Positions 44,621 through 61,146 are shown, counted from the stretch's first letter. The stretch is DNA of 64,000 bases from Bacillota bacterium (GCA_023411575.1 JAEYOP010000030.1:244926-308925), one strand, 5' to 3'. The notes: generated by a model not told the origin, from the letters alone. Numbers and translations are program-made.

Positions 44621-45334
44621 TCATTCTGCAAGGAGCCGGCGGGCTTTTTCGATGCTTTGGCCGTCCGGCGGGGAAACGCCGGCAAGAGGGTATTCCAGGC
44701 CGAGTTGCTCCCATTTGTACGAGCCCATGGAATGGTAGGGGAGAACCTCGACCTTTTGTACGTTCCGGAGCGTTCGGATAAAAGCGGCCGCCGCCTTCAA
44801 ATCCTCCTCCGAATCCGTATATCCCGGAACCAGCACATAGCGGATCCAGACCGGGATGCCCAGATCGGACAGCCGCCGCGCAAATGCGGCGGGCTTTTCC
44901 CGGCCGACGCCGGTGATTTCCCGATGGGCTTCGTCGCAGGCATGCTTGATATCGAGCAGCACAAGGTCGGTGCAGGACAGCAGCCCGTCCAGGTTGTCGG
45001 GCCCGGAAAAGCCGCTGGTGTCCAGGGCGGTGTGGATGCCGCTTTCACGGCACCTGCGGAACAGCTCCGCCACAAAGGAAGGCTGCAGCAGCGGTTCGCC
45101 GCCGGAAACCGTGACGCCGCCGCCGGAAAACTTCATATAGCCCGTATACCTGGAGATTTCCCTCATTACTTCGTCCACCGTATATTCGCGGCCGCCGAGG
45201 GGTTCCCACGTATCCCGGTTGTGGCAGTAAAGGCAGCGGAGCGGGCAGCCCTGCAGGAACGCCACAAAACGGATGCCGGGTCCGTCCAGCGTCCCGAAGG
45301 TTTCAAAGGAATGGATGCGGCCGGTTCGGTCCAA
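44621..45334 (-). CDS. pflA: Pyruvate formate-lyase (glycyl-radical enzyme) activating enzyme
   Basis: 237 aa. [38 protein letters not shown] matches E. coli PflA almost residue for residue ([38 protein letters not shown]). TTG start at 45334 with GGAGG 9 nt upstream. Confidence 0.92.
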   Translation of the reverse strand: [237 protein letters not shown]

Positions 45335-45882: not shown

Positions 45883-46028
45883 TACCTTATATTATGTCAA
45901 ACCTGCGATAATGTTGCGTTCCCGGACCGGTGAATATGCCGGATGCACATGCCGGTCCCATTTTACGGAAACGACATATTGTCACAGGGCTGCGAATTGG
46001 GATATACTTGATATGGGGGTGGTCTTAT

Positions 46029-47249
46029 TTGACTGGAATGGTGATCGCAGACGACGAACTGCTTATAAGGCAAGGGCTCCAAACCATATCATGGACCGAT
46101 TACGGCATCGAAATCAAGGGGATCGCATCCAACGGGACGGAGGCCCTTTCCCTGATTGAGTGCACTTTTCCGGAAATACTCCTGACCGACATCCGGATGC
46201 CCGGAATGGACGGCCTGAGGCTGATCCAGGCGGCCAAAAAGCTTCTGCCGGACATCAAGTCCATCCTGCTGACGGGGTACCAGGATTTCGGCTATGCCCA
46301 CTCGGCCATCCAGCTCGGCGCCATGGGTTACATCCTGAAGCCTTCCGATCCGGACGAGATCATCCGCACGGTCCTGAAGGCCAAGGAGCAGGTGGACGCC
46401 GAGCAGGCGGAAAAGCGCAGCCGGGAGAGGATCCGCCAGCAGATCGACGGGGTGCAGAATATTCTGATCCAGTCCTTTTTAACGGATCTGCTGTACGGGC
46501 GGATCACGGATGCCGCCGTGATCTCCGAAACCTGCCGGAAATACGATATTTGCTTCAGCAACGCCATCGTCCTGCTCGTCGAAGCCGGCCTGGAAGGCCG
46601 GGAACCGGACGGCGGGCTGATGCCGGGGCTGAAAGAGGAGATCCGGGGAGTGCTGTCCGACCTGAATACCGTATATACCGTCGATATGGATTCCACCTCC
46701 GTCTGCGCCGTTATCGAATTTCCTGCGGCGGCGGTGCCGGAACAGGACATTGTCCTGTCCATGGCGGCGGGGGTGCGGAATCATCTGGAAAGCCTCCTGG
46801 GCATCCATGCCGGCGTCGGAACGGGAATGTACTGCAGGAGCGCGTCGGAGCTCCACAGGGGCTACCTCCAGGCGCTGAACGCGATCCGGACCGGAACGAT
46901 TCCTGCCAGGAACGCTACGGTCAAGAACATCCTGGACTTTATCGAAAGCCGTTTCATGGAGGATATTACGCTCCTTATGGCTTCCGAGCACGTTTATATG
47001 AACCATATCTATTTAAGCCGGCTGATCAAGAAGGAAACCGGCGAGAATTTCATCGACATCCTGACCCGCGCCCGGCTGCGGAAAGCCTGCGAAATGCTGC
47101 GGGAAACCAGCCTGAAAACCTATGAAATCTCCGAAATGGTCGGCATAAAGGATTCTGGCTATTTCAGCCAGGTGTTCAAGAAACGGTTCGGGGTAACGCC
47201 TTCGGAGTACAGGGAAAACGCATTGTCTTCAACGAGGTCAAAGGGATGA
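46029..47249 (+). CDS. Two-component response regulator, CheY receiver plus AraC-type HTH (YesN-like)
   Basis: Receiver motifs (VIADDELLIRQGL.., LLTDIRMPGMDGL, GYILKP). C-terminal AraC HTH (ITLLMASEHVYMNHIYLSRLIKKETGENFIDILTRARLRKACEMLRETSLKTYEISEMVGIKDSGYFSQVFKKRFGVTPSEYR). The TTG at 46029 (SD GGGGGTGG 6 nt upstream) is preferred. An alternative is the ATG at 46038. Confidence 0.85.
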   Translation: MTGMVIADDELLIRQGLQTISWTDYGIEIKGIASNGTEALSLIECTFPEILLTDIRMPGMDGLRLIQAAKKLLPDIKSILLTGYQDFGYAHSAIQLGAMGYILKPSDPDEIIRTVLKAKEQVDAEQAEKRSRERIRQQIDGVQNILIQSFLTDLLYGRITDAAVISETCRKYDICFSNAIVLLVEAGLEGREPDGGLMPGLKEEIRGVLSDLNTVYTVDMDSTSVCAVIEFPAAAVPEQDIVLSMAAGVRNHLESLLGIHAGVGTGMYCRSASELHRGYLQALNAIRTGTIPARNATVKNILDFIESRFMEDITLLMASEHVYMNHIYLSRLIKKETGENFIDILTRARLRKACEMLRETSLKTYEISEMVGIKDSGYFSQVFKKRFGVTPSEYRENALSSTRSKG

Positions 47250-49006
47250 AAATCATAGCGAAGCGCCTCAATGACATGCCCATCAAAAACAAGCTGCTGC
47301 TTGCGTTTCTATTGCTGATCATCCTGCCGGTCATGCTGATCGGCTTTTTTTCCTTCTACACCTCCAAGGGCCTGCTCAAGCAGAAAACCGAACAGTATAC
47401 CAGCGATGTCCTTATGGAAACGGGCGAGAATGTGGACGTGAAGCTTCGGGAAATCGAACGGCTGTCCTTTCAGATCGTGTCCAGCATGCCCATCCAGCAG
47501 TCTTTGCGGAAAGCCAACAAGGGGGTCACGGACGAGTATGAAAAAATCGATGTGGAACAGACGATCGATACCCAGCTGAAGGGCTTCCTTACGCCGGAGC
47601 TGGACATTGCCGCCATCCGGATCATCTCGCTTTCGGGGATCACCTATTATGTCAATCCGGGTTCCATTGCCTTCGGCAACGTCGACGGCGAAAAGGAAAT
47701 TCTGGAGAAAGGGGTCGGAAGCGCCGTATGGTTCAAGACGGAGCCCCGCTACGGCACCATAACCGTGGGCAGGGCCATCAACAGCATTGTCAACCAGGAA
47801 ATGATCGGCTTTCTGTTCATAAACCTCCGGGAAAGCTCCCTCTACAACATTTATAAAAAGACGGAGCTGTTCAAAAACGGGGAGATTTACATCATCGACA
47901 AGGAAGGGTCCATCCTTTCCCACAAGGACAAGAAGCTTCTGAACACCTTTGTCGGCGACGCGGCGGAAGGGATCACCCTCGACAGCCTGCGGGACAATTT
48001 TATCACCGCCTCCGTCAACTCAAAGATGTATTATATTGCTTCCAGGGCGATCAACAACGCCCATTGGAAAATCATCGCCATCATCCCGACAGAGCAGTAT
48101 GAAGGCGACATCCTCCGGCTCCGCAGTTGGACGATCATCATCTGCGCCTCCTGCTGCCTGCTGGCCCTGCTGATTTCCCTGGCCCTGTCGGGCAGCATAT
48201 CCCTGCCGCTGCGCAAGCTTTCCTCCATGATGGAGAGGGTCGGAAAGGGGGATTTCAGCGTATCGATTTCCTATGATTCGAAGGATGAGGTGGGGATCCT
48301 GAGCAGCCATTTCAACAAGATGGTCGCCCAGGTGCAGAAGCTGATCCAGGAGGTCTACCAGGAGCAATACCTCACCCAGAAGGCGGAGCTCAAATCCCTC
48401 CGGATGCAGATCAATCCCCATTTCCTGTACAATACGCTGGAATCGATCAACTGGATGGCCCGCATCAAAGGCGCGCCCGAAATAGGGGATATGGTCAAGG
48501 CGCTGGGGGATCTGATGCGGGTGAGCATCAGCGGCGAGGATTTCATCCCGGTCGGGGAGGAAGTGGGAAACGTCGTCAATTACCTCAAGATACAGAATTT
48601 CCGGTATGGGGACCGGTTTGAGGTCCGGATTCATATTGAGCCGGACATTGAAAAGATCCTGGTGCCGAAGCTCATTTTGCAGCCCATCGTCGAAAATGCC
48701 ATTGTTCACGGCCTGGAGGAGAAGGTTGGCAATGGGCGGATTGAAATTACCGGCGTATTGGAGGAGGGCAACATCGTCATTACGGTTGCCGACAACGGGG
48801 TCGGGATGGAGGAGGAGAAAGCGGCGGTCATCCTGGACGACGGCGGGGAGGAAGCCGCCCACGGCGACAACCATACCCATATCGGCCTGAAAAATGTGGA
48901 CCGCCGGATCAAGCTGTATTACGGGCAGCAATACGGCCTTTCCGTCGCTTCGGTTCCCGGAAGCGGAACAACGGTGCGGGCGGTTCTTCCCATGGAGCAG
49001 AATTAA
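47246..49006 (+). CDS. Sensor histidine kinase (YesM-like: TM, extracellular sensor, TM, HAMP, His_kinase, HATPase)
   Basis: 586 aa. QINPHFLYNTLESINWMA (His_kinase H-box), HAMP-like LPLRKLSSMMERVGKGDFSV, and an ATPase domain (DNGVGM.., GIGLKNVDRRIKLYYG). The ATG overlaps the regulator stop (ATGA). Confidence 0.88.
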   Translation: MKIIAKRLNDMPIKNKLLLAFLLLIILPVMLIGFFSFYTSKGLLKQKTEQYTSDVLMETGENVDVKLREIERLSFQIVSSMPIQQSLRKANKGVTDEYEKIDVEQTIDTQLKGFLTPELDIAAIRIISLSGITYYVNPGSIAFGNVDGEKEILEKGVGSAVWFKTEPRYGTITVGRAINSIVNQEMIGFLFINLRESSLYNIYKKTELFKNGEIYIIDKEGSILSHKDKKLLNTFVGDAAEGITLDSLRDNFITASVNSKMYYIASRAINNAHWKIIAIIPTEQYEGDILRLRSWTIIICASCCLLALLISLALSGSISLPLRKLSSMMERVGKGDFSVSISYDSKDEVGILSSHFNKMVAQVQKLIQEVYQEQYLTQKAELKSLRMQINPHFLYNTLESINWMARIKGAPEIGDMVKALGDLMRVSISGEDFIPVGEEVGNVVNYLKIQNFRYGDRFEVRIHIEPDIEKILVPKLILQPIVENAIVHGLEEKVGNGRIEITGVLEEGNIVITVADNGVGMEEEKAAVILDDGGEEAAHGDNHTHIGLKNVDRRIKLYYGQQYGLSVASVPGSGTTVRAVLPMEQN

Positions 49007-49035
49007 ATTTTTTTGGGAAATTTATACTTTCGTAC

Positions 49036-49064
49036 TTGACAAAATTCAATTTGCAGCATAAAAT
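49036..49064 (+). promoter_or_regulatory. Strong sigma-A-type promoter upstream of the nitrogenase-like operon
   Basis: TTGACA (49036-49041), exactly 17 nt, TAAAAT (49059-49064). About 235 nt upstream of the first CDS. Confidence 0.6.
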
Positions 49065-49133
49065 ATATAAAAACGATAGGTATACTTTGGTTAAAAGAGA
49101 ATAGCACGTTGCAAAGTTGACCAGAAAACTGGA

Positions 49134-49168
49134 GGCTAAGTTCATCTAAACATGAGCTTGGCCTTTTT
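49134..49168 (+). terminator. Intrinsic terminator inside the leader of the nitrogenase-like operon (attenuator or 3' end of a short RNA)
   Basis: GGCTAAGTTCAT (49134-49145) pairs with ATGAGCTTGGCC (49152-49163). That is 12 bp with two G-U pairs and a 6-nt loop, followed by TTTTT (49164-49168). Confidence 0.6.
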
Positions 49169-49299
49169 GTATTTGCCGCCGCAGGAGCCGGGCTGCGGCC
49201 TTCGGGGAGCAGACAGCGGCCCGGGGAGCAAACTGCTGCAGAGGAAGCGGAGCCGGATTTCCGCAGGTTTCCAACAAAGAAAAGAATGGAGGAAGAAGC

Positions 49300-50634
49300 T
49301 TGGCTGAATTTATGGAACGCGCTAAATTTTCTTGTGCTCTCGGAGGAGCATTGACCACCATCGCGGGGATCCCCCGGGTGGTTCCCATCGTACATGCGGC
49401 GGGAGGCTGCGCCACGGCCCTGTCCAACACCTACAACCTGGCGTCGGGCTACCGGGGCGTGGGGTATTGCGGAGGGACCATGATCCCTACGTCCAATATT
49501 TCCGAAAACAACATCGTATTCGGCGGGGAAAAGAGGCTGGAGGAGCAGATCGAACACTCGCTGCGGATCCTGGACGGCGACCTTTATGTGGTCGTAACGG
49601 GCTGCCAGGTGGAAATCATCGGGGACGACGCCGTCGGCATCGCCCGGAGATTCCGGGACCGGAAAGTGGTGGGGGCAAGCACCCCGGGCTTCCTGGGGAA
49701 TTCCTTCAAGGGGTACGACTCCGTGCTGAACACGCTCATTTCAGAGGTGGTCGAGCCGTCGGCGGCGAAGGAGGGAAAAACCGTCAACCTCCTGGGGACG
49801 GTTCCCGGACACGACGTGTTTTATCTCGGCAACCTGAATGAAATCAAAAGGCTCCTGGAGCGGATCGGCGTCAGGGCCAACACGTTTTTCGGAACGGGAG
49901 AGAATGTCGCCGCCATCCGCGGATACGGGAAAGCCTCCCTGAACATCGTTTTTTCCACCCAGGCCGGAGTCGGGCCTGCCCGGACCTTTGAAGCCGTGCA
50001 CGGCATCCCGTACCTTTTCGCCGATCTGCCCGTGGGCCCCACGGGGACCAGGGAATTCCTGCACAAGGTCGGGAAGGCGCTGGAGGTGGACGAGAAAACG
50101 GTGGAGAAAGTCCTTCGCGAGGAGGAAGATACCTATTATTCCTTCCTGGAGCGGATCGTAGACATCTATTCGGATATTGACTTCCAGCGGTATGCCGTTG
50201 TGGCGGCGGACAGCTATTACGCCTTTCCGCTGACCCGCTTCCTGGCCAATGACCTGGGGTGGATCCCCCACCTGACCTCCATCAACGATATTGAATCGGA
50301 GGAGGAACAGCTGGAATACCGCGCCAAATTTGAAGGGATCGATTCCGAATCAAAGCCCCTGGTCCTTTTCGAGCGAAACGTGGGAGCGCTGGCGAAGAAC
50401 ATCCGGGACAGCTGGCCTTATAACAACAACCAGAAATATTACGACGCCTTCAGCCCCGCCTATGTGATCGGGACGGGCGTGGAGCGGGGAATTGCGGAGA
50501 AGATCGGCGCGGGCTTCCTGGCGGTGGCTTTCCCGGTCAGCAACCGGGTGGTCCTGAGCAAGGGCTACACCGGCTTCCGGGGAGCGCTGACGCTGGTGGA
50601 GGACCTGCTGTCGTCCCTGGTGGCGGCGCGCTAA
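49300..50634 (+). CDS. Nitrogenase component-1-type oxidoreductase, NifK/NifN-like subunit
   Basis: 444 aa. Cys residues sit in NifK-type cluster-ligand contexts: C12 (FSCALGGA), C37 (VHAAGGCAT) and C102 (VVTGCQVEIIGDD). TTG start at 49300, 7 nt after GGAGG (49288-49292). The first ATG is at 49312. Confidence 0.8.
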   Translation: MAEFMERAKFSCALGGALTTIAGIPRVVPIVHAAGGCATALSNTYNLASGYRGVGYCGGTMIPTSNISENNIVFGGEKRLEEQIEHSLRILDGDLYVVVTGCQVEIIGDDAVGIARRFRDRKVVGASTPGFLGNSFKGYDSVLNTLISEVVEPSAAKEGKTVNLLGTVPGHDVFYLGNLNEIKRLLERIGVRANTFFGTGENVAAIRGYGKASLNIVFSTQAGVGPARTFEAVHGIPYLFADLPVGPTGTREFLHKVGKALEVDEKTVEKVLREEEDTYYSFLERIVDIYSDIDFQRYAVVAADSYYAFPLTRFLANDLGWIPHLTSINDIESEEEQLEYRAKFEGIDSESKPLVLFERNVGALAKNIRDSWPYNNNQKYYDAFSPAYVIGTGVERGIAEKIGAGFLAVAFPVSNRVVLSKGYTGFRGALTLVEDLLSSLVAAR

Positions 50635-50673
50635 GGGCATAGCCGCCCCTAAATTGAGAAGGAGGGTACTTTT

Positions 50674-52206
50674 ATGTCCAATTATTCGGATACGTTAACC
50701 TATGATTTTTTGAAGGCGGACGCCCCGCCGACCCGGGAGGAGCGCATCGGCGCCTGCATCGCCTTCTGCGGCTCCTGCGGGCAGCTGAAGGAAGGCATCC
50801 GCTCGGGCTGCGCCCAGCTGCAGAGCCGGAAATTTTCCCAGAGCGGCGGCTGCCAGCTGACCCTGGCCGTCGGCATCGTCAGCAGCCTGACCAATGTGGT
50901 CATAATCATCCATTCCCCCCTGGGCTGCTGCTCCAGCTTCGTCGGCACCGGCGGCCTGCGCAAGACCATGCGCGCGTCGAAAGGCAAAAAGGACGAAGAT
51001 TTTGTGTGGATTCACACAAACCTGGATGAAAACGACGTGGTCCAGGGCGGTGTGGAAAAACTCCGGAAAGCGGTCCTCTATGCGGAAAAGGAATACCACC
51101 CCGAGGCCATCCTCATTGCCAACGGCTGCGTGCCCGGAATTATCGGCGACGACGTGGATTCCCTGGTCACGGAGCTGTCGGGCCGGATTTCGGCCAAAAT
51201 CGTGCCGGTACACTGCGAGGGGTTCAAGAGCAAATTCGTCGCTTCCGGGTACGATTCGGCCTACCACGGCTTCCTCCGGTATTTGCTGGAACCGGTCAAG
51301 CGCTATGAAAGCCCGGTTCCACGGGAGGAGCGGGATGCCCGGGAACGCTGGCAGATCAGCCGGACGGTTAACCTCTTTAATGTGGGCTCCAACAGCAGCG
51401 GGGACGAAGCGGAGCTTTCCAGGCTCGTAAGCGCCCTGGGGCTGATTCCGCGGGTGCTGCCCCTTCACGCGTCCCTGGAGGACCTGGCCCGCATCGGGGA
51501 AGCGGCTCTCAACGTCAGCATCTGCGCGACCCATGACGATTACCTCCTGGGACACCTGAAGCAGCGCTTCGGAACGGACTATCTCATCGACACGCTGCCC
51601 ATCGGCATAAAAAATACAAACCAGTGGATTCGCAGGATCGCGGGGTATTTTCACCTGGAGGACGAGGCGGAACGGCTTATCCGGTTTGAGAACGAGCAGT
51701 TGGGAAAAGCGCTGGAGCCCATCAAAAAGGTGCTGGCGGGCAAGACCATCTATGTCGGCGGCGGAGAGACCCGGATCATCACCACGGCGGAATTTTTCAC
51801 CTCCCTGGGTATGAAGCCCCTGGGCGTCAAGGCCCACAACGTGGACCGGTTCGTGGAGGAGATGCTGGACGATATCGACCATCCGGACCTGGTGGTGGAG
51901 GTAGGCGCGGGCCAGCCGGCGGAGGAACTGAATCACCTCAACCGCCTGAAGCCCGATCTGTACGTCGGCCATATGGGAGCCAACGGCTGGGCGTCCAGGC
52001 TGGGCGTCCCCAATCTTCCCCTCTTCGGGCAGACCCTGAATTACATGGGATATGCGGGCGCCTTCGAGCTGGCCAGAAAGGCGGCCAAGGTGCTCAAAAA
52101 CACCAATTTCGTCCGGAACATCTCCTCCCATGTGCGGCTGCCGTTGAGCGAGGCCTGGTTCGCGGAGAATCCCGCGGACAATATCAAGGAGAACGAAATT
52201 TATTGA
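50674..52206 (+). CDS. Nitrogenase component-1-type oxidoreductase, NifD/NifE-like subunit with extra N-terminal Cys cluster
   Basis: 510 aa. C60 (GGCQLT), C85/C86 (IIHSPLGCC), C152 (IANGCVPGIIGDD), VPVHCEGFK, and C284 (ALNVSICATHDD). The N-terminus carries C28-x3-C32-x2-C35-x10-C46. SD aaggaggg. Confidence 0.8.
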   Translation: MSNYSDTLTYDFLKADAPPTREERIGACIAFCGSCGQLKEGIRSGCAQLQSRKFSQSGGCQLTLAVGIVSSLTNVVIIIHSPLGCCSSFVGTGGLRKTMRASKGKKDEDFVWIHTNLDENDVVQGGVEKLRKAVLYAEKEYHPEAILIANGCVPGIIGDDVDSLVTELSGRISAKIVPVHCEGFKSKFVASGYDSAYHGFLRYLLEPVKRYESPVPREERDARERWQISRTVNLFNVGSNSSGDEAELSRLVSALGLIPRVLPLHASLEDLARIGEAALNVSICATHDDYLLGHLKQRFGTDYLIDTLPIGIKNTNQWIRRIAGYFHLEDEAERLIRFENEQLGKALEPIKKVLAGKTIYVGGGETRIITTAEFFTSLGMKPLGVKAHNVDRFVEEMLDDIDHPDLVVEVGAGQPAEELNHLNRLKPDLYVGHMGANGWASRLGVPNLPLFGQTLNYMGYAGAFELARKAAKVLKNTNFVRNISSHVRLPLSEAWFAENPADNIKENEIY

Positions 52207-52230
52207 AGGAGCAGGAAACGGAGGATCGCC

Positions 52231-53214
52231 ATGTGCGTTGCAGAAAGCAATTTAGCAATCGTAAACAACCTGACGGAATTAATCGGCAATACGCCGATCT
52301 TGAGGCCGGCCGCCTTTAAAAAGCTTGCCGGGATCAACGAAGCGGAGCTGCTGCTGAAGCTGGAATATTACAACCCCCTCGGAAGCGTAAAAGACCGGAT
52401 CGCCTATGCGATGATCACGGATGCAGAGCAAAGGGGGCTCCTGACCCACGACTCCGTCCTCATCGAGCCTTCCAGCGGAAATACGGGGGTGGGGCTCGCT
52501 TTTGTGGCGGCAGCCAGGAAATACAAGCTGATCATTACCATGCCCGATACCATGAGTCAAGAGAGAAGGAGCCTTCTGACGGCCTTGGGGGCCGAGCTGG
52601 TCCTGACCCCGGGCGCCCTGGGGATGAAGGGCGCCATCCGGAAGGCGGAGGAACTGAGCATTCAGATTCCCAACGCCATCATCCTCCAGCAGTTCGACAA
52701 TCCGGCCAACCCGGAGATTCACCGGAAAACCACGGGCCCCGAGATCTGGGAGGCGACCCGCGGCGAGGCGGACATCCTGGTGGCGGGGGTCGGCACGGGA
52801 GGCACCGTCACCGGCGCCGGTGGGTATCTGAAGGAAAAAAAGCCCGGCGTTCAAATCGTGGCAGTGGAGCCGGCCGCCTCAAGCGTGCTGTCCGGCGGGC
52901 CCATAGGGCCGCATAAGATCCAGGGGATCGGAGCCGGATTCATCCCGGGCGTGCTGGACTTGAAGCTGGTGGATGAAATTTACAGGGTGTGGAACGAGGA
53001 GGCCATCGACACCTCCCGCGTGCTCGCCAGGGAAGAGGGGCTGCTGGTGGGCATCTCCTCGGGAGCAGCGGCTTTTGCGGCGGCCAAGGTGGCCAACCGC
53101 CCCGAGAACAAGGGAAAGACCGTCGTAGCCATATTGCCCGACACCGGCGAGCGCTACCTGTCCACCGAGCTGTTTAACAAGGCGGTGGAGGAAAAAAGCC
53201 GGTACTGGTATTAA
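52231..53214 (+). CDS. cysK: Cysteine synthase A (O-acetylserine sulfhydrylase)
   Basis: 327 aa. PLP-lysine block [13 protein letters not shown], substrate loop [11 protein letters not shown], and [22 protein letters not shown] blocks. Confidence 0.9.
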
Positions 53215-53230
53215 AGGAGAGGAGTGCGCC

Positions 53231-53581
53231 ATGAAGTACAGGATCGCAGTCGGCACAAAGGATGATGTGAATGTGACCGAACATTTCGGGCAATGCGGGC
53301 GTTTCCTTCTCATCGATGTGGACCAGGAGAAGGATGAAATCACCGTCGCGGGGGAGAGGTTCACCCCCTGCTCGTCCCGATGCGGCGAGCACCGGGAGCA
53401 GCAGATCCGGGACAAGATCGACGCCCTTGGAGACTGTCGGATCATTCTGGTGAAGCAGCTGGGCGGCTGGTCGGAGAAGCAGCTGAACCACCGGGGGCTC
53501 ATCGGGCTTCAATACCAGGGGGCGGTGGACGAGGCCCTGAAACGGATCCGCCATGCCTACCGGAAGCATAAATTCGGATGA
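53231..53581 (+). CDS. NifX/NafY/NifB-C-terminal-type (dinitrogenase Fe-Mo cofactor-binding family) small protein
   Basis: 116 aa. MKYRIAVGTKDDVNVTEHFGQCGRFLLIDVD.. fits the family pattern (iAv.s.d...v..HFG.a..f.iydv). SD aaaggagaggag. Confidence 0.7.
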   Translation: MKYRIAVGTKDDVNVTEHFGQCGRFLLIDVDQEKDEITVAGERFTPCSSRCGEHREQQIRDKIDALGDCRIILVKQLGGWSEKQLNHRGLIGLQYQGAVDEALKRIRHAYRKHKFG

Positions 53582-53608
53582 AAGAAATCCGCAGGAAAGG
53601 AGAAGCAT

Positions 53609-54607
53609 ATGGAAGAAATAAGCGTTCACGAACGCATAAAGCTCTCGCAGCTTGAAGTGAAATTCGACTACCGCACCGTGATCCCTCTTGCCGCCGCGGG
53701 GCTTACGCTGCTGGCGGACGGGCTGATTCCCAACCATCCGGACGCAAAGTACAGGGACCTGACCAATTTCAGCACGGTTACGACCGCCGTCGCGGCGGTT
53801 GCGGCACTGCTGTTCGCCCTTTCCCGGTTCAGCGGCAGCGTCCGTTCGAAATACGCGGACAAGGCGTGGTTCATCGGAGGTCTGTTTACCTTTTTCAACG
53901 TCCTGAACCTGGTTACGGTAAAATTTCTGCTGCTGCCCCAGCTCTATTTCCCCAGTCTGAACCGCATATTGAACGTCTACATCACGGATTACCAGTTTTT
54001 GCTCACTTGTCTCGGCAGCTCCTTCAGTCTTCTGGTGGAAGGGCTGATCATCGGTTCTGTTGTCGGGATCGTGACCGGCATTGCTGTCGGCTGGAGCAGG
54101 CACTGGAACTACTGGATCTACCCCGTCATCCGCATTCTGGGACCGATTCCCTCCTCTACGTGGATTCCGCTGGCGCTGATCATTTTTCCGACGCCGCGGT
54201 GGGCGGCCGTGTTCCTCATTGCTTTCGGCGTCTGGTTCCAGCTGACCATCCTGACCAGCTCGGGGATCCAGAGCGTGAAACAGTCCTATTTCGAGGTTTC
54301 TTCCACGCTGGGGGCCACCAGTCTTCAAAATCTGTTCCGGATTGCCATCCCGGACGCGCTGCCCTCCGTATTCCTCGGCTTCTTCAACGCCACCTGCACT
54401 TCCTTTGTGGCGCTGATGGCGGCGGAGATGCTGGGCTGCAAATCCGGCATCGGCTGGTACATCAACTGGCAGAAGGAAATGGTCTCGTATCCCAACGTTT
54501 ACGCGGGGCTGGTCCTGATCGCCGGGTTCTGTTACCTGTTCATCACCATTCAATTCAAGGTAAGGGATAAGCTGCTCGGCTGGCAGAAGGGGGTTATCAA
54601 ATGGTAG
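53609..54607 (+). CDS. ABC transporter permease, NitT/TauT (nitrate/sulfonate/taurine) family
   Basis: 332 aa, polytopic. The EAA-type loop FEVSSTLGATSLQNLFRIAIPDALPSVFLGF is typical of SsuC/TauC-like permeases. Confidence 0.8.
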   Translation: MEEISVHERIKLSQLEVKFDYRTVIPLAAAGLTLLADGLIPNHPDAKYRDLTNFSTVTTAVAAVAALLFALSRFSGSVRSKYADKAWFIGGLFTFFNVLNLVTVKFLLLPQLYFPSLNRILNVYITDYQFLLTCLGSSFSLLVEGLIIGSVVGIVTGIAVGWSRHWNYWIYPVIRILGPIPSSTWIPLALIIFPTPRWAAVFLIAFGVWFQLTILTSSGIQSVKQSYFEVSSTLGATSLQNLFRIAIPDALPSVFLGFFNATCTSFVALMAAEMLGCKSGIGWYINWQKEMVSYPNVYAGLVLIAGFCYLFITIQFKVRDKLLGWQKGVIKW

Positions 54608-55428
54608 GAACTCAAACGGCAAGCTTCGGGGCGGAAAGCACAGGGGCCATATCGGCAAGGGCCGTCTGCAAGGAATTCTGGCATCCGGACGGCGAAAAGG
54701 TCACGGCGCTGAGCAATCTGGACATCGACATCGACGCGGGGGAGTTCATCTGCCTGATCGGCCCCTCGGGCTGCGGGAAATCCACGTTCCTGCGGCTCGT
54801 CGGCGGACTGATCCCGCCCACCGGAGGAGAGCTGACCCTGGACGGCAGCCCCATCGGAGGGCCGGGCTACGAACGCGGCCTGGTGTTCCAGGACCCTACC
54901 CTGTTTCCCTGGCTGACCGTATTTGAAAATGTGGCATACGGCTTGAAAATCCGTCACGTGTATAAGGAAAAAAAGAAAGAGGTGGATCAATTCATTCGGC
55001 TGGTGGGGCTGGAGGGCTTCGGAAAAGCCTACCCGCACCAGCTTTCGGGGGGCATGGCCCAGCGTGCGAGCCTGGCGAGGGCGCTGGTGAACAATCCGAA
55101 GGTGCTGCTGCTGGACGAACCCTTCGGCGCCCTGGACGCCTTTACCCGCATGAACATGCAGGACGAAATCCTGAGGCTGTGGAAGGAAAGAGGCACGACG
55201 ATGATCATGGTGACCCATGACGTGGACGAGGCGATTTACCTGAGCGACAGAGTGCTGGTCATGACGCCGCGTCCCGCGAAAATCGAGCAGGTGATCCAGG
55301 TGGAGATCGGACGCGGTGAAAATGGAGGCAGACAGCGGGACAGCGTGGATTTTCTCCGGCTGCGTTCAAAAATCCTGCAGATCCTGGATTTTACCGGGAA
55401 GTCCCAACAACTGGAATATTATCTTTAA
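54601..55428 (+). CDS. ABC transporter ATP-binding protein, NitT/TauT family
   Basis: 275 aa. Walker A GPSGCGKST, signature LSGGMAQRASLARALV, Walker B LLLDEPFGALD. The ATG overlaps the permease 3' end by 7 nt. Confidence 0.85.
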   Translation: MVGTQTASFGAESTGAISARAVCKEFWHPDGEKVTALSNLDIDIDAGEFICLIGPSGCGKSTFLRLVGGLIPPTGGELTLDGSPIGGPGYERGLVFQDPTLFPWLTVFENVAYGLKIRHVYKEKKKEVDQFIRLVGLEGFGKAYPHQLSGGMAQRASLARALVNNPKVLLLDEPFGALDAFTRMNMQDEILRLWKERGTTMIMVTHDVDEAIYLSDRVLVMTPRPAKIEQVIQVEIGRGENGGRQRDSVDFLRLRSKILQILDFTGKSQQLEYYL

Positions 55429-55439
55429 GGGGGTATTTT

Positions 55440-56729
55440 ATGAAAAGTTCATTTAGGATGAATGGAAAGAAATCCGTATTGCTTCGGAAAGGGATCGGCA
55501 TTCTGTGCGCACTGGCGCTTCTGGGCGGAATGCTGGCCGCGTGCGGAGGCGGCTCCGCGGAAAAGACGGCGGACGCCGCGGTCTCTGAGGCATCATCGGC
55601 GGCCGCATCGCCCACGGCAGCCGCGTCCACCGCGGCTACAGCGGCGGAGAATACCGCTGCCGGAGGGGAAAAGACCTCCGGGGACACTTACAAGATCAAA
55701 ATCATGTACAGCGCATCGTTGTGCGGAATTCCGCTGCATATTGCAAAACAGCTGAAGTTCTTCGAGGCCGAGGGGTTGGTGGAGGGAGAAAGCTATGAAT
55801 TCCTCACTTCCAGCACGCCGGGCATCGAGATGCTGTCCACGAAGCAGGCGGACGTTACCTTCGGCCTCGTGGCGGCCATGCTGGCTCCGCTGGACAACGG
55901 CCTGGAAGCCAAAACCGTTATCGGCATCCATACGGGCTGCATCCAGATCCTCGCCAACGCCAATGCGGGCATCCACTCCCTGAAGGACCTGAAGGGCAAA
56001 AAGATCGGCGTTTCCCAGCTGGCCTCCTCCCCCCATATTATATCGCAGCGCGCCCTGGCCAGCGTCGGCATCGGCACGACAGCCGACAACATGCAGGTGG
56101 AGTTCGTCGTATACAACAAGGACGATCTGCCTGTGGCGCTGAAGAAGGGGGCGATAGACGCCGCGGCCCTCGGGGATCCGCAGGCCACGATCCTCATAAA
56201 CGAAGGCTCGGCCGTGCCTCTCTTCAATTCGGCCACGGACGATCTGTTGAAGGACGAGTACTGCTGCTCGCTCTGGTTCCGGAACGAGGTGCTGGAGAAA
56301 TATCCTGAAGAATGCGCCAGGGTCACCCGGGCAGTGCAGAAGGCGTCGGCATGGGTCGGACAGAACCTGGATCTGGCGGCGCAAATCCAATTGGACAACA
56401 AATGGCTCGTCGGCGATCTGGCGATTGACAGGCAGGTGCTGAAAACATACAAATACCTGCCTTCGGTAAGCGGCGTGGACGAAGCCCTGACCCGGAACAT
56501 CCTGGATATGAAGAAGCTCGGCCTGATCAAGAAGGATACGGATGAGGTGCAGCTGGCGAAGAACAGCTTCTTGAAGCTGGAAGGCGTTCCGGACAATATC
56601 GGGGGCACAGTGGAGCCGCCCATCGACCCCAGGACCCAGATCAAGTCGGATACGGCCGCGGAGACCGCCGGCAGTACGGCCGATGGGACCACAGCCACTA
56701 CGGATGCCGGTGTGCAGGGCGCGAAATAA
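55440..56729 (+). CDS. ABC transporter substrate-binding lipoprotein, NMT1/SsuA-like
   Basis: 429 aa. Lipobox LAACGG, an A/S/T-rich linker, an SsuA/NMT1-like body (LKGKKIGVSQLASSPHIISQRALASVG, AIDAAALGDPQATIL) and a T/A-rich C-terminal tail. Confidence 0.7.
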   Translation: MKSSFRMNGKKSVLLRKGIGILCALALLGGMLAACGGGSAEKTADAAVSEASSAAASPTAAASTAATAAENTAAGGEKTSGDTYKIKIMYSASLCGIPLHIAKQLKFFEAEGLVEGESYEFLTSSTPGIEMLSTKQADVTFGLVAAMLAPLDNGLEAKTVIGIHTGCIQILANANAGIHSLKDLKGKKIGVSQLASSPHIISQRALASVGIGTTADNMQVEFVVYNKDDLPVALKKGAIDAAALGDPQATILINEGSAVPLFNSATDDLLKDEYCCSLWFRNEVLEKYPEECARVTRAVQKASAWVGQNLDLAAQIQLDNKWLVGDLAIDRQVLKTYKYLPSVSGVDEALTRNILDMKKLGLIKKDTDEVQLAKNSFLKLEGVPDNIGGTVEPPIDPRTQIKSDTAAETAGSTADGTTATTDAGVQGAK

Positions 56730-56785
56730 GGAAGCGGCGGACGCCTATGCCTCCCAGAACTGTCGGAAAGCGTGCCGCGCCGCGG

Positions 56786-57103
56786 CTATTTCCCGCCGAA
56801 GCGGTCGTCCGTTTCCAGCAGGGGAATTCCTCCGGCAAAATACCGTTCAATAATATGGGCGTCGGCTTCAAACGCCAGCTCCGGCAGGCTGTCCGGCGCA
56901 AACCATCCCAGCCGGGCGATGTCGTCGCCCGGCTGTTCCGCGCCGCCCTCGACGCGGGCGAGCAATACTATACAGTATCTCATCCCATCGTGCCCGAAGC
57001 TGTTCTGGTATTCATAGGACGCGAAAATTTGCCGAATATTCAAGGCGGCCTCCCCCTCTTCCGAGGTTTGTTTTTTTGGCATTCTTCCGGAAAAGCATTG
57101 CAT
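56786..57103 (-). pseudogene. NUDIX-hydrolase-like C-terminal fragment (probable gene remnant)
   Basis: 105 aa. The C-terminal part looks NUDIX-like (LGWFAPDSLPELAFEADAHIIERYF). Where a Nudix box should be, the sequence is degenerate (GRMPKKQTSEEGEAALNIRQIF), and the expected 35-40 N-terminal residues are missing. There is no convincing SD. Only 86 nt separate it from the divergent HD gene. Confidence 0.35.
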
Positions 57104-57189
57104 CCCGGTGGAAAATCCGGTAATCTATAAACAGAAGTTAGCCTATTGGAATTATAGCATATATTATACAAAACAGGGAGTGGAGTAAT

Positions 57190-57789
57190 TTGAATAATGG
57201 CACAAACGACAGGGAAGCGGCGATAAGGCTGCTGAAAGAATACGTGAAATCCGAGAGCCTAATCCGCCACGCATGGACGGTGGAGGCGGTCATGAGGCAT
57301 TTCGCCCGCCTGCTGGGGGTGGGAGAAGAGGACAAGTGGGGAATCGTCGGGCTTTTGCACGATATCGATTATGAGCGGTATCCCGACGAGCACTGCTTCA
57401 AGGCGCGGGAAATCCTGTCCGGCGCCGGCTGGCCCGAGGAAACCATCCGGGCGGTCGAGAGCCATGGCTACAAGCTGGTGAACGATGTCGAACCGATCCA
57501 TGTCATGGAAAAGGTGCTCTATGCCACGGACGAGCTTACGGGGCTGATCGCCGCTACCGCTTTGCTGCGGCCGAGCCGGAGCCTGGCGGACCTGGGTGTC
57601 CAATCCGTCCGGAAGAAATGGAAGCAGAAGGGCTTTGCCGCCGGCGTCAACCGTGAAGTGATCGAAGACGGGGCGAAGCTTTTGAACCTGGACCTGGACT
57701 ACATTATCGGACAAACCATCCTGGGAATGCGGACGGTGGCCGCGGAAATCGGCCTGGACGGGGGCGAATTTCCGGCGATTGGCGAATAA
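57190..57789 (+). CDS. HD-domain metal-dependent phosphohydrolase
   Basis: 199 aa. HD motif (GLLHDIDYERYPDEH) and LIRHAWTVEAVMRHFA. TTG start with SD ggagtggag. Confidence 0.75.
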   Translation: MNNGTNDREAAIRLLKEYVKSESLIRHAWTVEAVMRHFARLLGVGEEDKWGIVGLLHDIDYERYPDEHCFKAREILSGAGWPEETIRAVESHGYKLVNDVEPIHVMEKVLYATDELTGLIAATALLRPSRSLADLGVQSVRKKWKQKGFAAGVNREVIEDGAKLLNLDLDYIIGQTILGMRTVAAEIGLDGGEFPAIGE

Positions 57790-57902
57790 AGTTTATTTTT
57801 TTAACTCTTAAGTTTATTTTATGGCATTTCCTCCTTTCCGATCCGGATTTATAATGAAAAAGGATCAGCTGATACTTGGCAATACAGAATATAGAGGAGG
57901 AA

Positions 57903-59270
57903 ATGCGCAGTATGAAGAGAATTTTTGTTGTTGCACTTTGTATTTGTTTTGCTTTTTCAATGGTTCTTTCCGGTTGCGGTACCAAGACGGAAACCGCTCC
58001 GCCCGAAGGATCGACCCCGGCGGTGGAGGAATCCGCGGAGGCAGCTCCTGCCGAAACGGCTCCCGCCGAGCCTGCTGAAAAAGTAGCCGTCAAGATTTCC
58101 TGCTGGGGAATTGAGACAGACCCCAACTCCCAGATCATCAAACAGGCAGTGGACCTTTTCAATCAGAAGAACACCGTAAATGCAACGGCTTCGGTGGAGT
58201 TCACCGAGCAGGAGCAGTACAAGACCAAGATCGCGGCGCAGATGGCCGCCAATGAAATTCCGGATGTGTTCAATACCTGGGCCGCCGGTTTCCTCAAGCC
58301 TTTTGTAAAGGCCGGCAAGGTCTATGCGCTGAGCGAATCCCTCGACAAGGATGCCGAATGGAGCGGCCGCTATGTGAAAGGCGTCATGTCCTCCCTGACC
58401 TTCGACGGAAAGGCTTACGCGGCGCCCACCACCCAAACGATCGTTTGTCTGTTCTATAACAAGGAAATATTCCAGAAATACGGGCTGAGCGAGCCGAAGA
58501 CCTATGCGGACCTGAAAAATATCGTAAAGACGCTGAACGATAACGGCGTTGTCCCGTTTGCACTGGGCAACAAGGGGCCCTGGGTGGGAGCAATGTACAG
58601 CGAGCTCCTTGCGAACCGCATCGGCGGAAGCGAACCCTTCAACAAGGTGTATGACGGTACCGGTACCTGGGAAGATCCTTCCTTTATCGAAGCCGGCAAG
58701 GCGATGAAGGAGCTTGCGGATATGAATGCGTTCCCGAAGGGCTTCAACGCGTTGGACAACGATCCTTCCAGAGCGATGTTCGTGGAAGGCAAGGCGGCCA
58801 TGCATGTCATGGGAAGCTGGGCGATCCAGCAGCTTATGGCGGAAGACGCCATCAAGGATAAGCTCGACGTTTGCAAATTCCCCGCATACGACGGCGGCAA
58901 GGGCAGTGCGGACGCATGGCTCGGGCAGCCCGACCAGAGCTTTGCCATCAGCGCCGGCAGCAAGGTGATCCCGGCCGCGGCGGAATTCATCAAAACCATG
59001 TCCGATCCCGAGATCCAGGCCAAACTTGCCGAAGCAGGAAACCTTGTAGCGACGAATATCCCGCTGGATGCCACAAAGGTCAATCCTATCGCCATGAAGG
59101 TGGCGGATCTCCAGAAATCCATGACGGAGCTGTTCATATTCTATGACGTAGGACTTGGCGCCACCGTCGGCAACGAATTCAACAACACGATCCAGGCAAT
59201 TACCGCCGGAAAGTCTCCGGAGGAATCCTTCAAGAAGCTTCAGCAGTTCACCGAACAGAACAAGGAATAG
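57903..59270 (+). CDS. CUT1-family sugar ABC transporter substrate-binding lipoprotein
   Basis: 455 aa from the ATG at 57903 (SD agaggagg). Lipobox LSGCG. Family-1 extracellular solute-binding features are present (ISCWGIE.., PFALGNKGPWVGAM). Confidence 0.85.
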   Translation: MRSMKRIFVVALCICFAFSMVLSGCGTKTETAPPEGSTPAVEESAEAAPAETAPAEPAEKVAVKISCWGIETDPNSQIIKQAVDLFNQKNTVNATASVEFTEQEQYKTKIAAQMAANEIPDVFNTWAAGFLKPFVKAGKVYALSESLDKDAEWSGRYVKGVMSSLTFDGKAYAAPTTQTIVCLFYNKEIFQKYGLSEPKTYADLKNIVKTLNDNGVVPFALGNKGPWVGAMYSELLANRIGGSEPFNKVYDGTGTWEDPSFIEAGKAMKELADMNAFPKGFNALDNDPSRAMFVEGKAAMHVMGSWAIQQLMAEDAIKDKLDVCKFPAYDGGKGSADAWLGQPDQSFAISAGSKVIPAAAEFIKTMSDPEIQAKLAEAGNLVATNIPLDATKVNPIAMKVADLQKSMTELFIFYDVGLGATVGNEFNNTIQAITAGKSPEESFKKLQQFTEQNKE

Positions 59271-59286
59271 AAAGTTTGTCTGAAAA

Positions 59287-59324
59287 CCCGGTGGCCGGAA
59301 TCATTGCCGGCCGCCGGGATTTTT
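59287..59324 (+). terminator. Intercistronic hairpin plus U-tract between the binding-protein and permease genes (partial terminator / stabiliser)
   Basis: CCCGGTGGCCGG (59287-59298) pairs with a CCGGCCGCCGGG-type arm (59306-59318) including one G-U, followed by ATTTTT. Confidence 0.5.
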
Positions 59325-59337
59325 AAAGGAGACCCCC

Positions 59338-60225
59338 ATGGATTCCATGCGCAGGAATAAGAAAACCATCCTTTTGTTTCTTTTACCGGCAGCCCTCGTT
59401 TATCTGGCCATAGTGGCCCTGCCCGTATGCAGCACCGTTTATAACAGCTTTTATAAATGGAATCTGGTTGATGTAAAGAAATATATTGGGATCAACAACT
59501 TTATACAGCTTTTTACCATCGATGACATTTTCAGGACCGGGCTGAAAAATACCCTTCTGCTGACGGTGCTGTCCCTTATAGTGCAGACGCCCGTGGCGAT
59601 TGCGCTGGCTCTGGCCCTGTCCGGCACACTGAAGGGCGGAAGATATTTCAAAACCGTTTACTTTCTCCCCAATATCCTCTCCAGTGTAGCAATCGGATTA
59701 CTCTGGACGTTTGTTTTCAATCCGGATTTCGGAATCGTCAACCAGTTTCTGAAGGCCATCGGTCTCGAAAGCCTTCAGGGCTTGTGGCTCGCGGACGAGA
59801 AGAGCGTGCTGCCGTCGATCATCGTCGTCATCTGCTGGCAGTTTGTCGGGTATCACATGATCATTTACCTGGCTGCCGTGGAAGGGATCCCCGAGAGTCT
59901 GCAGGAAAGCGCGACGATAGACGGGGCAACCTATCTTCAGAGAGTCCGCTTCATCATGCTGCCTTTGATCAAGCCGATCATCGGGATTGATGCGGTATTG
60001 ATCGTGACCGGCTCCCTTCGCTTCTTCGACCTGATCTATGTCATGTCGAACGGCGGCCCGAACCATTCCAGCGAAGTGCTGGCGCTCTATATGTACTACA
60101 AGTCCTTCCGCGACATGCAGTATGGTTACGGAAGCGCTATCGCCGTGGTCCTTCTGGCGCTGTGTCTGGTCATCACGGCCGTTATGAACAGGCTGTTCCG
60201 GTCGGAAGAGATCCAATATTCCTAG
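59338..60225 (+). CDS. CUT1 sugar ABC transporter permease (MalF-like)
   Basis: 295 aa with six hydrophobic segments and the EAA loop ESLQESATIDGATYLQRVRFIMLPLIKP. SD aaaggag. Confidence 0.88.
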   Translation: MDSMRRNKKTILLFLLPAALVYLAIVALPVCSTVYNSFYKWNLVDVKKYIGINNFIQLFTIDDIFRTGLKNTLLLTVLSLIVQTPVAIALALALSGTLKGGRYFKTVYFLPNILSSVAIGLLWTFVFNPDFGIVNQFLKAIGLESLQGLWLADEKSVLPSIIVVICWQFVGYHMIIYLAAVEGIPESLQESATIDGATYLQRVRFIMLPLIKPIIGIDAVLIVTGSLRFFDLIYVMSNGGPNHSSEVLALYMYYKSFRDMQYGYGSAIAVVLLALCLVITAVMNRLFRSEEIQYS

Positions 60226-60236
60226 AGGAGAGAGAA

Positions 60237-61091
60237 ATGTCAATGCCAGAAAAGAACTATCGCAGGAAAAAGGTTTCCATAAGCCGGATCCTGGTATATA
60301 CGGCCCTTTCGGTCATTTCGATCGTTTACCTGTATCCGCTGCTGTGGCTCGTCATCAGTTCGTTTAAAACCGACCAGGAATTGTTCTCCAATCCGTGGTC
60401 CCTCAGCACGGCCATACAGCTTGGCAATTATGCCACCGCGTGGTCGGCGGGCAAAATCGGGAGAAGCTTTCTGAACTCCGCTCTGGTTGCGCTTGTCTCC
60501 GTAGGGCTTACCATAGTGACCGCCAGCATGTCGGCTTTTGCCATCAAACGCTTCAAGTGGAAAGGCTCGGCCCTGGTGATGGGCCTGTTCCTGATCGGCG
60601 TTTTCATCCCGATCCATTCCACCCTGATTCCGCTTTTTATGGCTTTCAACAAAATCAGGTTGATCAACAACTACCTGTCGTTGATCCTGCCGTATGTGGC
60701 TTTTGCCCTGCCCACGTCGATTTTCATATTGGGCGGGTTCATGTCCGCCTTCCCGGGCGAGATCGAGGAAGCGGCGGTAATGGACGGCTGCAAGATGAGC
60801 GGCGTTTTCTGGAAGATTATTTTCCCCCTTTCCAAAACGCCGATTGCCACCATTTCCATTTTCAATTTCGTCAACTGCTGGAATGAATTGATGTTTGCCA
60901 TGATCTTCCTGCCGGACGTGAATAAAATGACGCTGCCGGTCAGCCTTACCCGGTTCAGGGGGCAGTATTCCACCAATTGGTCCATCCAGCTCGCCGCCAT
61001 TGTCATCATGGTGGTGCCGGCTTTGATCGCCTATATTTTCCTGAATGACAAGATTATGAAAAGCCTGACGGTCGGCGCAGTAAAAGGTTAG
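60237..61091 (+). CDS. CUT1 sugar ABC transporter permease (MalG-like)
   Basis: 284 aa from the ATG at 60237 (SD agaggagag). EAA loop EIEEAAVMDGCKMSGVFWKIIFPLSKTP. Confidence 0.88.
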   Translation: MSMPEKNYRRKKVSISRILVYTALSVISIVYLYPLLWLVISSFKTDQELFSNPWSLSTAIQLGNYATAWSAGKIGRSFLNSALVALVSVGLTIVTASMSAFAIKRFKWKGSALVMGLFLIGVFIPIHSTLIPLFMAFNKIRLINNYLSLILPYVAFALPTSIFILGGFMSAFPGEIEEAAVMDGCKMSGVFWKIIFPLSKTPIATISIFNFVNCWNELMFAMIFLPDVNKMTLPVSLTRFRGQYSTNWSIQLAAIVIMVVPALIAYIFLNDKIMKSLTVGAVKG

Positions 61092-61146
61092 CTGCCCGAA
61101 ATGGGCAATATTGCCGGAAGCAGCAACGTCGTTTTTGATTTATTTC

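Follow-up and report, generated by a model that had tools for sequence, protein, structure and literature searches.

The 64,000-nucleotide stretch of a Bacillota bacterium contig that is analyzed here (GCA_023411575.1, JAEYOP010000030.1:244926-308925; the window in what follows) carries on its plus strand an operon of seven genes, which encode two nitrogenase-like (NFL) subunits, named K and D, followed by the cysteine synthase CysK, a NifX-like protein and the three parts of an ATP-binding cassette (ABC) importer (Table 1). The initial annotation of this DNA, which was made by a model from the sequence, described seven same-strand genes separated by 39, 24, 16, 27, -7 and 11 nucleotides (nt), and a scan for open reading frames (ORFs) agrees exactly with this layout and finds all seven frames intact. 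The gene families named there are also those assigned by Pfam and NCBIfam, which are Oxidored_nitro for the first two genes, and then CysK, Nitro_FeMo-Co, a permease, an ATPase and an NMT1/SsuA-like binding protein.

Table 1. Genes of the operon and elements of its leader, with positions counted from the first nucleotide of the window
Feature	Position	Strand	Remarks
Gene 1 (K), NFL beta-type subunit (MarK/NifK-like), 444 aa	49300-50634	+	TTG start behind GGAGG
Gene 2 (D), NFL alpha-type subunit (MarD-like), 510 aa	50674-52206	+	PF00148
Gene 3, CysK, O-acetylserine sulfhydrylase, 327 aa	52231-53214	+	TIGR01139
Gene 4, NifX/NafY-family small protein, 116 aa	53231-53581	+	PF02579 Nitro_FeMo-Co
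Gene 5, NitT/TauT-type ABC permease, 332 aa	53609-54607	+	BPD_transp_1
Gene 6, ABC ATPase, 275 aa	54601-55428	+	ABC_tran
Gene 7, NMT1/SsuA-like substrate-binding lipoprotein, 429 aa, lipobox LAAC	55440-56729	+	NMT1_2, NMT1
Sigma-70-type promoter, TTGACA-17-TAAAAT	49036-49064	+	11/12 consensus positions
GATAGGTATA box right after the -10 element	49075-49084	+	Tentative repressor operator
Conserved leader RNA element, 32 nt	49111-49142	+	4-bp outer helix P1, U-GA / AG internal loop, inner hairpin C-Y-R-G with 4-nt loop
Intrinsic terminator, 15-bp stem then T-run	49131-49173	+	-20.3 kcal/mol, z -4.8

Both subunits match the Oxidored_nitro model (PF00148, cut-off of 28.6 bits), K with an E-value of 2.6e-69 (234.5 bits) and D with an E-value of 1e-72 (245.7 bits). 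Against all PDB sequences, the top match of K is MarK (9D9U_C, and also 9FMG, which is the structure of methylthio-alkane reductase, MAR or Mar, from R. rubrum), with 266 bits, while D matches MarD with 210 bits, NifE with about 95 bits and NifD with at most 75 bits. The best NCBIfam model for D is nifE, whose score of 153.7 bits is far under the cut-off of 505.1, and the nifD model gives 120 bits, also far under its cut-off of 653.55. An AlphaFold2 model of D, built from 12 sequences, has a mean predicted local distance difference test score of 61, which is enough for fold ranking and not for pocket analysis, and Foldseek places the MAR chains above NifE and NifD as the closest folds of this moderate-confidence model. 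In a neighbor-joining tree rooted on NifE, the clade of the window is sister to a clade that contains MarD and Mar-like paralogs of Sporomusa, Pelosinus and others; this is a simple tree whose reference set was composed without IsrD, NfaD, IV-D and IV-E, so the placement relative to Groups IV-A, IV-D and IV-E is beyond its reach. The scores of D under the nifE and nifD equivalog cut-offs set the pair apart from NifEN and NifDK.

The residues that bind the metal clusters were mapped by HMMER and MAFFT alignments to the solved MarK and MarD. In the structure described with 9FMG, the P-cluster is bound by Cys32, Cys56 and Cys121 of MarK and by Cys66, Cys91 and Cys158 of MarD, while the [Fe8S9C] cluster is bound by Cys270 and by His429, located in loop I, of MarD. 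Cys12, Cys37 and Cys102 of K, which had been recognized at the outset as a NifK/NifN-type set, fall on Cys32, Cys56 and Cys121 of MarK, and the NifD/NifE-type set of D, formed by Cys60, Cys85 and Cys152, falls on the three P-cluster cysteines of MarD. Cys284 of D, also proposed from the beginning as a cluster ligand, aligns to MarD Cys270. The claim that D has no ligand histidine, as in NifE, has to be withdrawn: His433, in a YVGH motif, aligns to MarD His429, and it was overlooked because it sits in the Mar-specific loop and not at the position of NifD His442. Cys284 and His433 are invariant in all 23 family members aligned, and all the P-cluster and L-cluster ligand positions of K and D are invariant across the family. 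Between the window and its closest relative (locus L001, another one with no H gene linked to it), K shows a ratio of nonsynonymous to synonymous substitution rates (dN/dS) of 0.125 and D one of 0.074, and the two genes are therefore under purifying selection. The analysis supports the assignment of K and D to the component-1 enzymes of the nitrogenase superfamily, in a context of sulfur assimilation. Residues 1-58 of D (50674-50850) form an N-terminal extension, which is poorly modeled by AlphaFold and has two more invariant cysteines, Cys35 and Cys46, in an AFCGSC...GC context.

The pair had been presented as related to Mar and yet distinct from it, and this agrees with the sister position in the tree, with the 32% identity between D and MarD and with the replacement of the Mar hallmarks. 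Mar, Mar1 and Mar2 conserve Arg428, beside the histidine ligand, and the active-site residues His194, Trp195, Ser196, Phe199, Phe374 and His375. In the alignment of the clade of the window, the position of Arg428 is a gap or a glycine. The active-site positions of D are occupied by Phe (His194), Val (Trp195), Ala (Ser196), Tyr (Phe199), His (Phe374) and Asn (His375), and the position of His194 is Phe, Tyr or Ile across the clade. Arg428, His194, Trp195, Phe199 and His375 are replaced in the whole clade, whereas Mar-like paralogs within the same genomes retain Arg428, Trp195, Phe199 and His375.

The product of gene 3 scores 442.2 bits with TIGR01139, the equivalog model for cysK, above the cut-off of 350.95. 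The product of gene 4 matches PF02579 (43.6 bits, cut-off of 26.3) and reaches 39 bits with the nifX equivalog model, which has a cut-off of 112; no sequence relative of it was found in the PDB, and it is a putative carrier of a NifB-made cluster. The best NCBIfam models for the permease are NtrB, SaoP, TauC and SsuC, all under cut-off (71.7 bits against 342 for TauC), and those for the ATPase are NtrCD, SaoA and TauB, again under cut-off (232 bits against 357 for the taurine ATPase model NF008421, which is TauB-like). With the nitrate-type models NtrB and NtrCD, the scores are equal to or above those of the sulfonate and taurine models. The binding protein reaches 102.3 bits with SsuA_fam, for a cut-off of 163.5, and has only remote matches in the PDB, so its ligand specificity is not inferable. 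By these family scores, the importer is placed only at the superfamily level, in NitT/TauT.

Two clade-specific peptide patterns gave 311 confirmed loci among the GTDB species representatives, and 80 of these loci were fetched. In 75 of the 80, K stands immediately upstream of D, and in 63 of 66 loci (at least 55% identity) cysK comes immediately downstream of D. From this tight K-D-cysK linkage, it is argued that the product of the enzyme feeds the cysteine synthase, in line with the sulfur-assimilation setting that had been proposed. No sulfite reductase was seen in the annotated neighborhoods, which mildly favors a product at the sulfide level. The fuller clusters of relatives also carry DUF2292, PNPOx_N and a DUF4418-FtsX-ABC set, and no DUF2292, PNPOx_N or FtsX gene was found in the window; a literature search on DUF2292/YezD returned nothing useful. 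In a locus of Sporobacter termitidis (L085, 368-2088), and downstream of the importer in L083 and L087, extra conserved partners are found, which are a corrinoid protein with a URO-D-type methyltransferase (mlp type), PNPOx_N, DUF2292 and the DUF4418-FtsX-ABC set, which is exporter-like. These partners are a hint of demethylation ahead of carbon-sulfur (C-S) cleavage and of export of the carbon product. A preprint reports clostridial Mar-like genes that accompany mlp methyltransferase clusters, and the Sporobacter locus shows the same arrangement.

The genes for NifB-like (B) and NifH-like (H) partners occur beside the operon in many relatives. In the nearest relatives that bear them (L002-L012, L021 and L054, whose D proteins are 74-80% identical to that of the window), nifB-like, second Nitro_FeMo-Co/nifX-like and nifH-like genes are directly upstream of K, while in other relatives the B, X and H genes are downstream of cysK, lie past the importer or are encoded by the other strand. 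The B protein of the relatives reaches 249 bits with TIGR01290 and matches NifB over residues 10-282, and the H protein reaches 409 bits with TIGR01287, above the cut-off of 394. Forty-one loci have 8 kb or more of sequence on each side and at least 60% identity; H is nearby in 18 of them, and the other 23, cultured isolates included, have neither H nor B. DK pairs unlinked to H are also published, such as NflDK3 of R. palustris and NflDK1-5 of H. fasciatum, which are away from its nifH-like gene, and the host genomes hold nifH-like genes elsewhere.

In six loci of rumen Lachnospiraceae, Butyrivibrio and Acetatifactor (L043, L046, L047, L048, L052 and L059), the nifH-like gene beside K-D-cysK encodes a protein 66-68% identical to A. 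vinelandii NifH, compared with 44-48% in other loci, which suggests that the Fe-protein partner was exchanged there for a canonical-type NifH. Other loci, from Sporomusa, Pelosinus and others (L044, L049-L051, L053, L057, L058, L008, L023 and L088), contain within 10 kb one to three extra D-K pairs, which are Mar-like and have no nifH nearby; several DK enzymes probably share a single Fe protein and a single NifB.

The TTGACA-17-TAAAAT sequence is the top-ranked promoter-like site within 48500-57500, and the promoter of the initial annotation is thus present. A leader of about 235 nt, with a conserved hairpin and an intrinsic terminator, intervenes between the promoter and K, and expression would therefore be controlled by an attenuator and not set by the promoter alone. 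The leader hairpin scores 38.6 bits with a covariance model, R1, which has the sequence of the window itself in its training set. Over 42 instances, 93% of cells pair, six of the eight pairs have compensatory changes and none of 500 shuffles is as good; the regular expression used to collect the instances partly favors the inner helix, and the outer helix is unconstrained by it. In 1.49 Mb of related loci, R1 has 77 matches, 75 of them on the plus strand, where the NFL genes also lie. They are upstream of K (21), PNPOx (16) and NifB-like (15) genes, often directly after DUF2292 genes (28), and examples are found at 7934 and 8651 of L083, 7775 and 8403 of L014 and 8532 of L086. The window has a single match, and the element is spread in Clostridia and Negativicutes. 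The presence of the same motif before K, nifB-like and PNPOx genes implies a common regulon.

No Rfam family matches the window at gathering scores, and permissive scans of the leaders of the window, L083 and L014 gave no relevant family; the leader hairpin is a new item of this analysis, unlisted in Rfam. The 3' strand of P1 is also the 5' arm of the terminator, which gives the layout of an anti-terminator (ON) switch, that is, of an attenuator, and the element is a candidate riboswitch or protein-bound attenuator. The GATAGGTATA box that follows the -10 element has counterparts, of the form (G/A)ATAGGAA(T/A)A, at the same place in L075, L077, L079 and L080. It may resemble the 3' half of the CymR operator and is, as a tentative lead, a possible CymR/Rrf2-type operator; no Rrf2 gene was found in the window. 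A GC-rich spacer of about 130 nt (49170-49299), with an ordinary folding energy (z -0.64), separates the terminator from the ribosome-binding site of K; at this place the spacers of relatives are short and AT-rich.

The operon has a guanine-cytosine (GC) content of 0.59-0.60, compared with 0.54-0.56 in its flanks, and the synteny with L001, which is 82% identical, ends at the operon boundaries. No flanking repeats that would hint at a mobile element were found around it. Upstream (45930-49006), there is a YesN/YesM-type two-component system, formed by an AraC-type response regulator and a dCache/HAMP/His_kinase sensor, and downstream (57876-61100) a sugar-type ABC transporter. Two-component systems of the YesM/YesN type usually adjoin sugar ABC transporters, and here the operon parts one from the other. 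The operon looks like an inserted cassette.

Taken together, K and D are probably, with somewhat more belief than doubt, the catalytic half of a Mar-related, uncharacterized NFL C-S reductase of Group IV, whose product, most simply sulfide, would feed CysK and whose NifB-like and NifH-like partners would be encoded elsewhere. In the proposed mechanism, the promoter would be active under sulfur or cysteine shortage and the leader hairpin would settle termination versus read-through. The importer, which depends on the lipoprotein, would take up an organosulfur compound. K and D, as a K2D2 component, would carry a P-cluster at the subunit interface, bound by the six cysteines, and D would bind a NifB-derived [Fe8S9C]-type cluster by Cys284 and His433, brought to apo-D by the NifX-like protein. 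A NifH-like ATPase would supply low-potential electrons for the reductive cleavage of the C-S bond by K/D, and the co-transcribed CysK would condense the freed sulfide or small thiol with O-acetylserine to form cysteine. The nifB-like, second nifX-like and nifH-like genes, which are adjacent in relatives, would be located elsewhere in this genome and shared. The gene set, the conservation of the ligands, the position of the clade, the constant neighbors and the structure of the leader are established by the analysis, and the chemistry, the substrate, the control by sulfur status and the existence of H and B elsewhere are inferred from them.

Several observations weigh against this reading. The residues His194, Trp195, Phe199, His375 and Arg428 of Mar are all replaced, which leaves room for another substrate and even for another type of reaction; the tree has the limited reach described above; and the binding protein is under every specific family cut-off, SsuA and TauA included. 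There is no experimental work on any member of the clade. No nifH or nifB gene was found in the window by tblastn with A. vinelandii NifH, the core of NifB and, from close relatives, the H and B proteins, as the initial annotation had already stated, and a further 8.5 kb downstream on the contig (ENA ERZ27268914, k141_8356) contains no H, B or other relevant gene, so that the search covers about 72 kb of 328 kb. A search with the clade H protein for an H from the same assembly (ERZ27268914) was also negative, since the seven candidate clusters that were traced all come from other samples. The single radical S-adenosylmethionine (SAM) gene of the window (44621-45334, minus strand) was considered as a NifB and rejected: its tblastn match to the NifB core is weak, it has only generic Radical_SAM and Fer4_12 domains and it reads as PflA-like.

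The absence of H and B had been taken as the mark of a new kind of system. In the relatives, these genes occupy several positions beside K-D-cysK, and the absence therefore reflects the placement of a mobile accessory module and not a property of the family; the B-X-H genes directly upstream of K in near relatives, the H-unlinked loci of the survey and the published parallels all go against that claim. The H and B of this genome are most likely encoded elsewhere and shared, and the "NifH-less" trait, which had driven the interest in this operon, is mostly an effect of gene placement.

The alternative of the initial annotation, in which K and D receive electrons directly from ferredoxin or flavodoxin, independently of NifH and NifB, and form a new kind of sulfur-salvage system, would fit the lack of H and B in the contig portion searched and in 23 of the 41 well-flanked relatives, and also the purifying selection on K and D, seen between the window and L001. 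It is very improbable, considering that the adjacent B-X-H genes of close relatives are under the same leader motif, that the invariant Cys284 and His433 imply a NifB-made carbide cluster, that the published H-unlinked DK pairs sit in genomes with nifH-like genes elsewhere and that, according to a 2026 review, every NFL system seen so far is two-component. It would be just as surprising if the window and the many relatives without nifH or nifB within 10 kb had a natural one-component NFL C-S reductase working on an L-type cluster, with its expression set by a new riboswitch-like leader; such an enzyme would be a natural case of what only engineered NifB and NifEN systems have recently demonstrated. 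An orphaned cassette, in which K-D-cysK-X-ABC was gained or rearranged without B-X-H, with K/D inactive and only CysK and the importer useful, is a less remote alternative, though unlikely. The synteny confined to the operon, the split YesM/YesN-type system and sugar transporter, the distinct GC content and the lack of the DUF2292, PNPOx_N and FtsX genes of fuller clusters are in its favor, while the intact ORFs, the retention of all ligands, dN/dS values of 0.07-0.13 against L001 and the preserved promoter, leader motif and terminator speak against inactive subunits.

A sulfonate reductase similar to isethionate reductase (ISR), which would convert an imported aliphatic sulfonate to sulfite, reduced elsewhere to sulfide for CysK, is unlikely. 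ISR itself uses an SsuABC importer, with cysE and cysK co-induced, and the NitT/TauT-family importer of the window has SsuA-, TauC- and TauB-like proteins among its best matches; but the binding protein stays under the cut-offs for SsuA and TauA, the Mar loci of R. palustris are likewise flanked by transporters of the sulfonate type, and no sulfite reductase was seen in the annotated neighborhoods. According to the 2026 review, IsrDK lacks the conserved ligand sets of the P-cluster and of the L-cluster/FeMo-co (iron-molybdenum cofactor), and IsrB has only the radical-SAM domain and is not NifB-like, whereas the clade of the window keeps the ligands and has a NifB-like B as its partner. That K/D is a maturase or scaffold resembling NifEN, or an alternative nitrogenase of the Nfa type, in place of a C-S reductase, is scarcely credible: nifE is indeed the best NCBIfam model for D and N2 fixation is proposed for the Nfa enzymes of Group IV-A, but the nifE and nifD scores are far under their cut-offs, MarD and MarK match far better, the positions of the catalytic Gln191 and His195 of NifD are occupied in D by Val189 and Tyr193, and the constant neighbor is cysK and not a gene of nitrogen metabolism.

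Part of this picture is already published, namely the location of NFL genes beside a cysteine synthase, DK pairs unlinked to H, partners of the NifX type and importers of the sulfonate type. A cysteine synthase or an O-acetylhomoserine sulfhydrylase beside NFL genes that bear Cys275 was noted in 2012 (PMC3464626). In R. palustris, NFL loci are induced by sulfate limitation, a NifX homolog is essential for Mar and sulfonate-type transporters flank the Mar loci, so cysK, the nifX-like gene and the importer do not hold as new distinctions from Mar, as had been claimed for them. MAR and ISR are Group IV NFL enzymes that cleave C-S bonds for sulfur acquisition, and the function of the uncharacterized Group IV enzymes is, for the 2026 review, the main open problem of the field. 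No paper that characterizes the clade of the window was found in the literature, in agreement with the suggestion that this arrangement had not been functionally described. The clade is a well-delimited target, common among anaerobic Bacillota (311 or more loci at the species level), which keeps the full nitrogenase-type cluster set and has its own active-site lining. Its near-constant operon linkage with cysK points to the release of sulfide rather than methanethiol, for example from a desulfurized thiol or thioether. The leader hairpin is common to the K-D-cysK, nifB-nifX-nifH and PNPOx units, and the substrate or the inducing metabolite could be learned from what it binds. Most useful among the new items are the active-site signature of the clade, the nearly obligate linkage to cysK and the leader element, which is unlisted.

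Among known systems, Mar (MarBHDK, Group IV-C, R. rubrum, 9FMG/9D9U) is the best match of the pair in sequence and fold, and shares with it the six P-cluster cysteines, both [Fe8S9C] ligands and the sulfur-assimilation context, and the relatives of the operon have NifB-, NifH- and NifX-like partners as well. The gene order is K-D here and D-K in Mar, the cognate MarH and MarB genes have no counterpart at the locus of the window, and the pair is coupled to CysK, while Mar is coupled to an O-acetylhomoserine sulfhydrylase that takes up methanethiol. NifEN, the FeMo-co maturase, has the same fold, binds the L-cluster and is the top NCBIfam match of D, but the scores are far under cut-off, K keeps the full triad of P-cluster cysteines and the context is one of sulfur and not nif.

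The isethionate reductase IsrBHDK (Group IV-F, R. capsulatus) is also an NFL enzyme for anaerobic sulfur acquisition, which operates with an SsuABC-type importer and is co-induced with cysteine-synthesis genes. It differs from the clade of the window, which keeps all the ligands and has a NifB-like B in relatives, and it is set apart here by its published description and not by sequence. Groups IV-D and IV-E are uncharacterized according to the 2026 review, and the clostridial Mar-like genes near mlp clusters are labeled 'IV-A' in the preprint. DK pairs without adjacent H or B are also known as NflDK3 of R. palustris (RPA2363-64), NflDK of R. rubrum and NflDK1-5 of Heliophilum fasciatum. Sulfate limitation induces NflDK3, which adjoins genes for a sulfhydrylase and a transporter. 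Unlike the pair of the window, it is proteobacterial and 52-56% identical to MarDK1, thus much nearer Mar, and it is paired with an O-acetylhomoserine sulfhydrylase and a methionine transporter, where the operon described here has cysK and a TauT-type importer.

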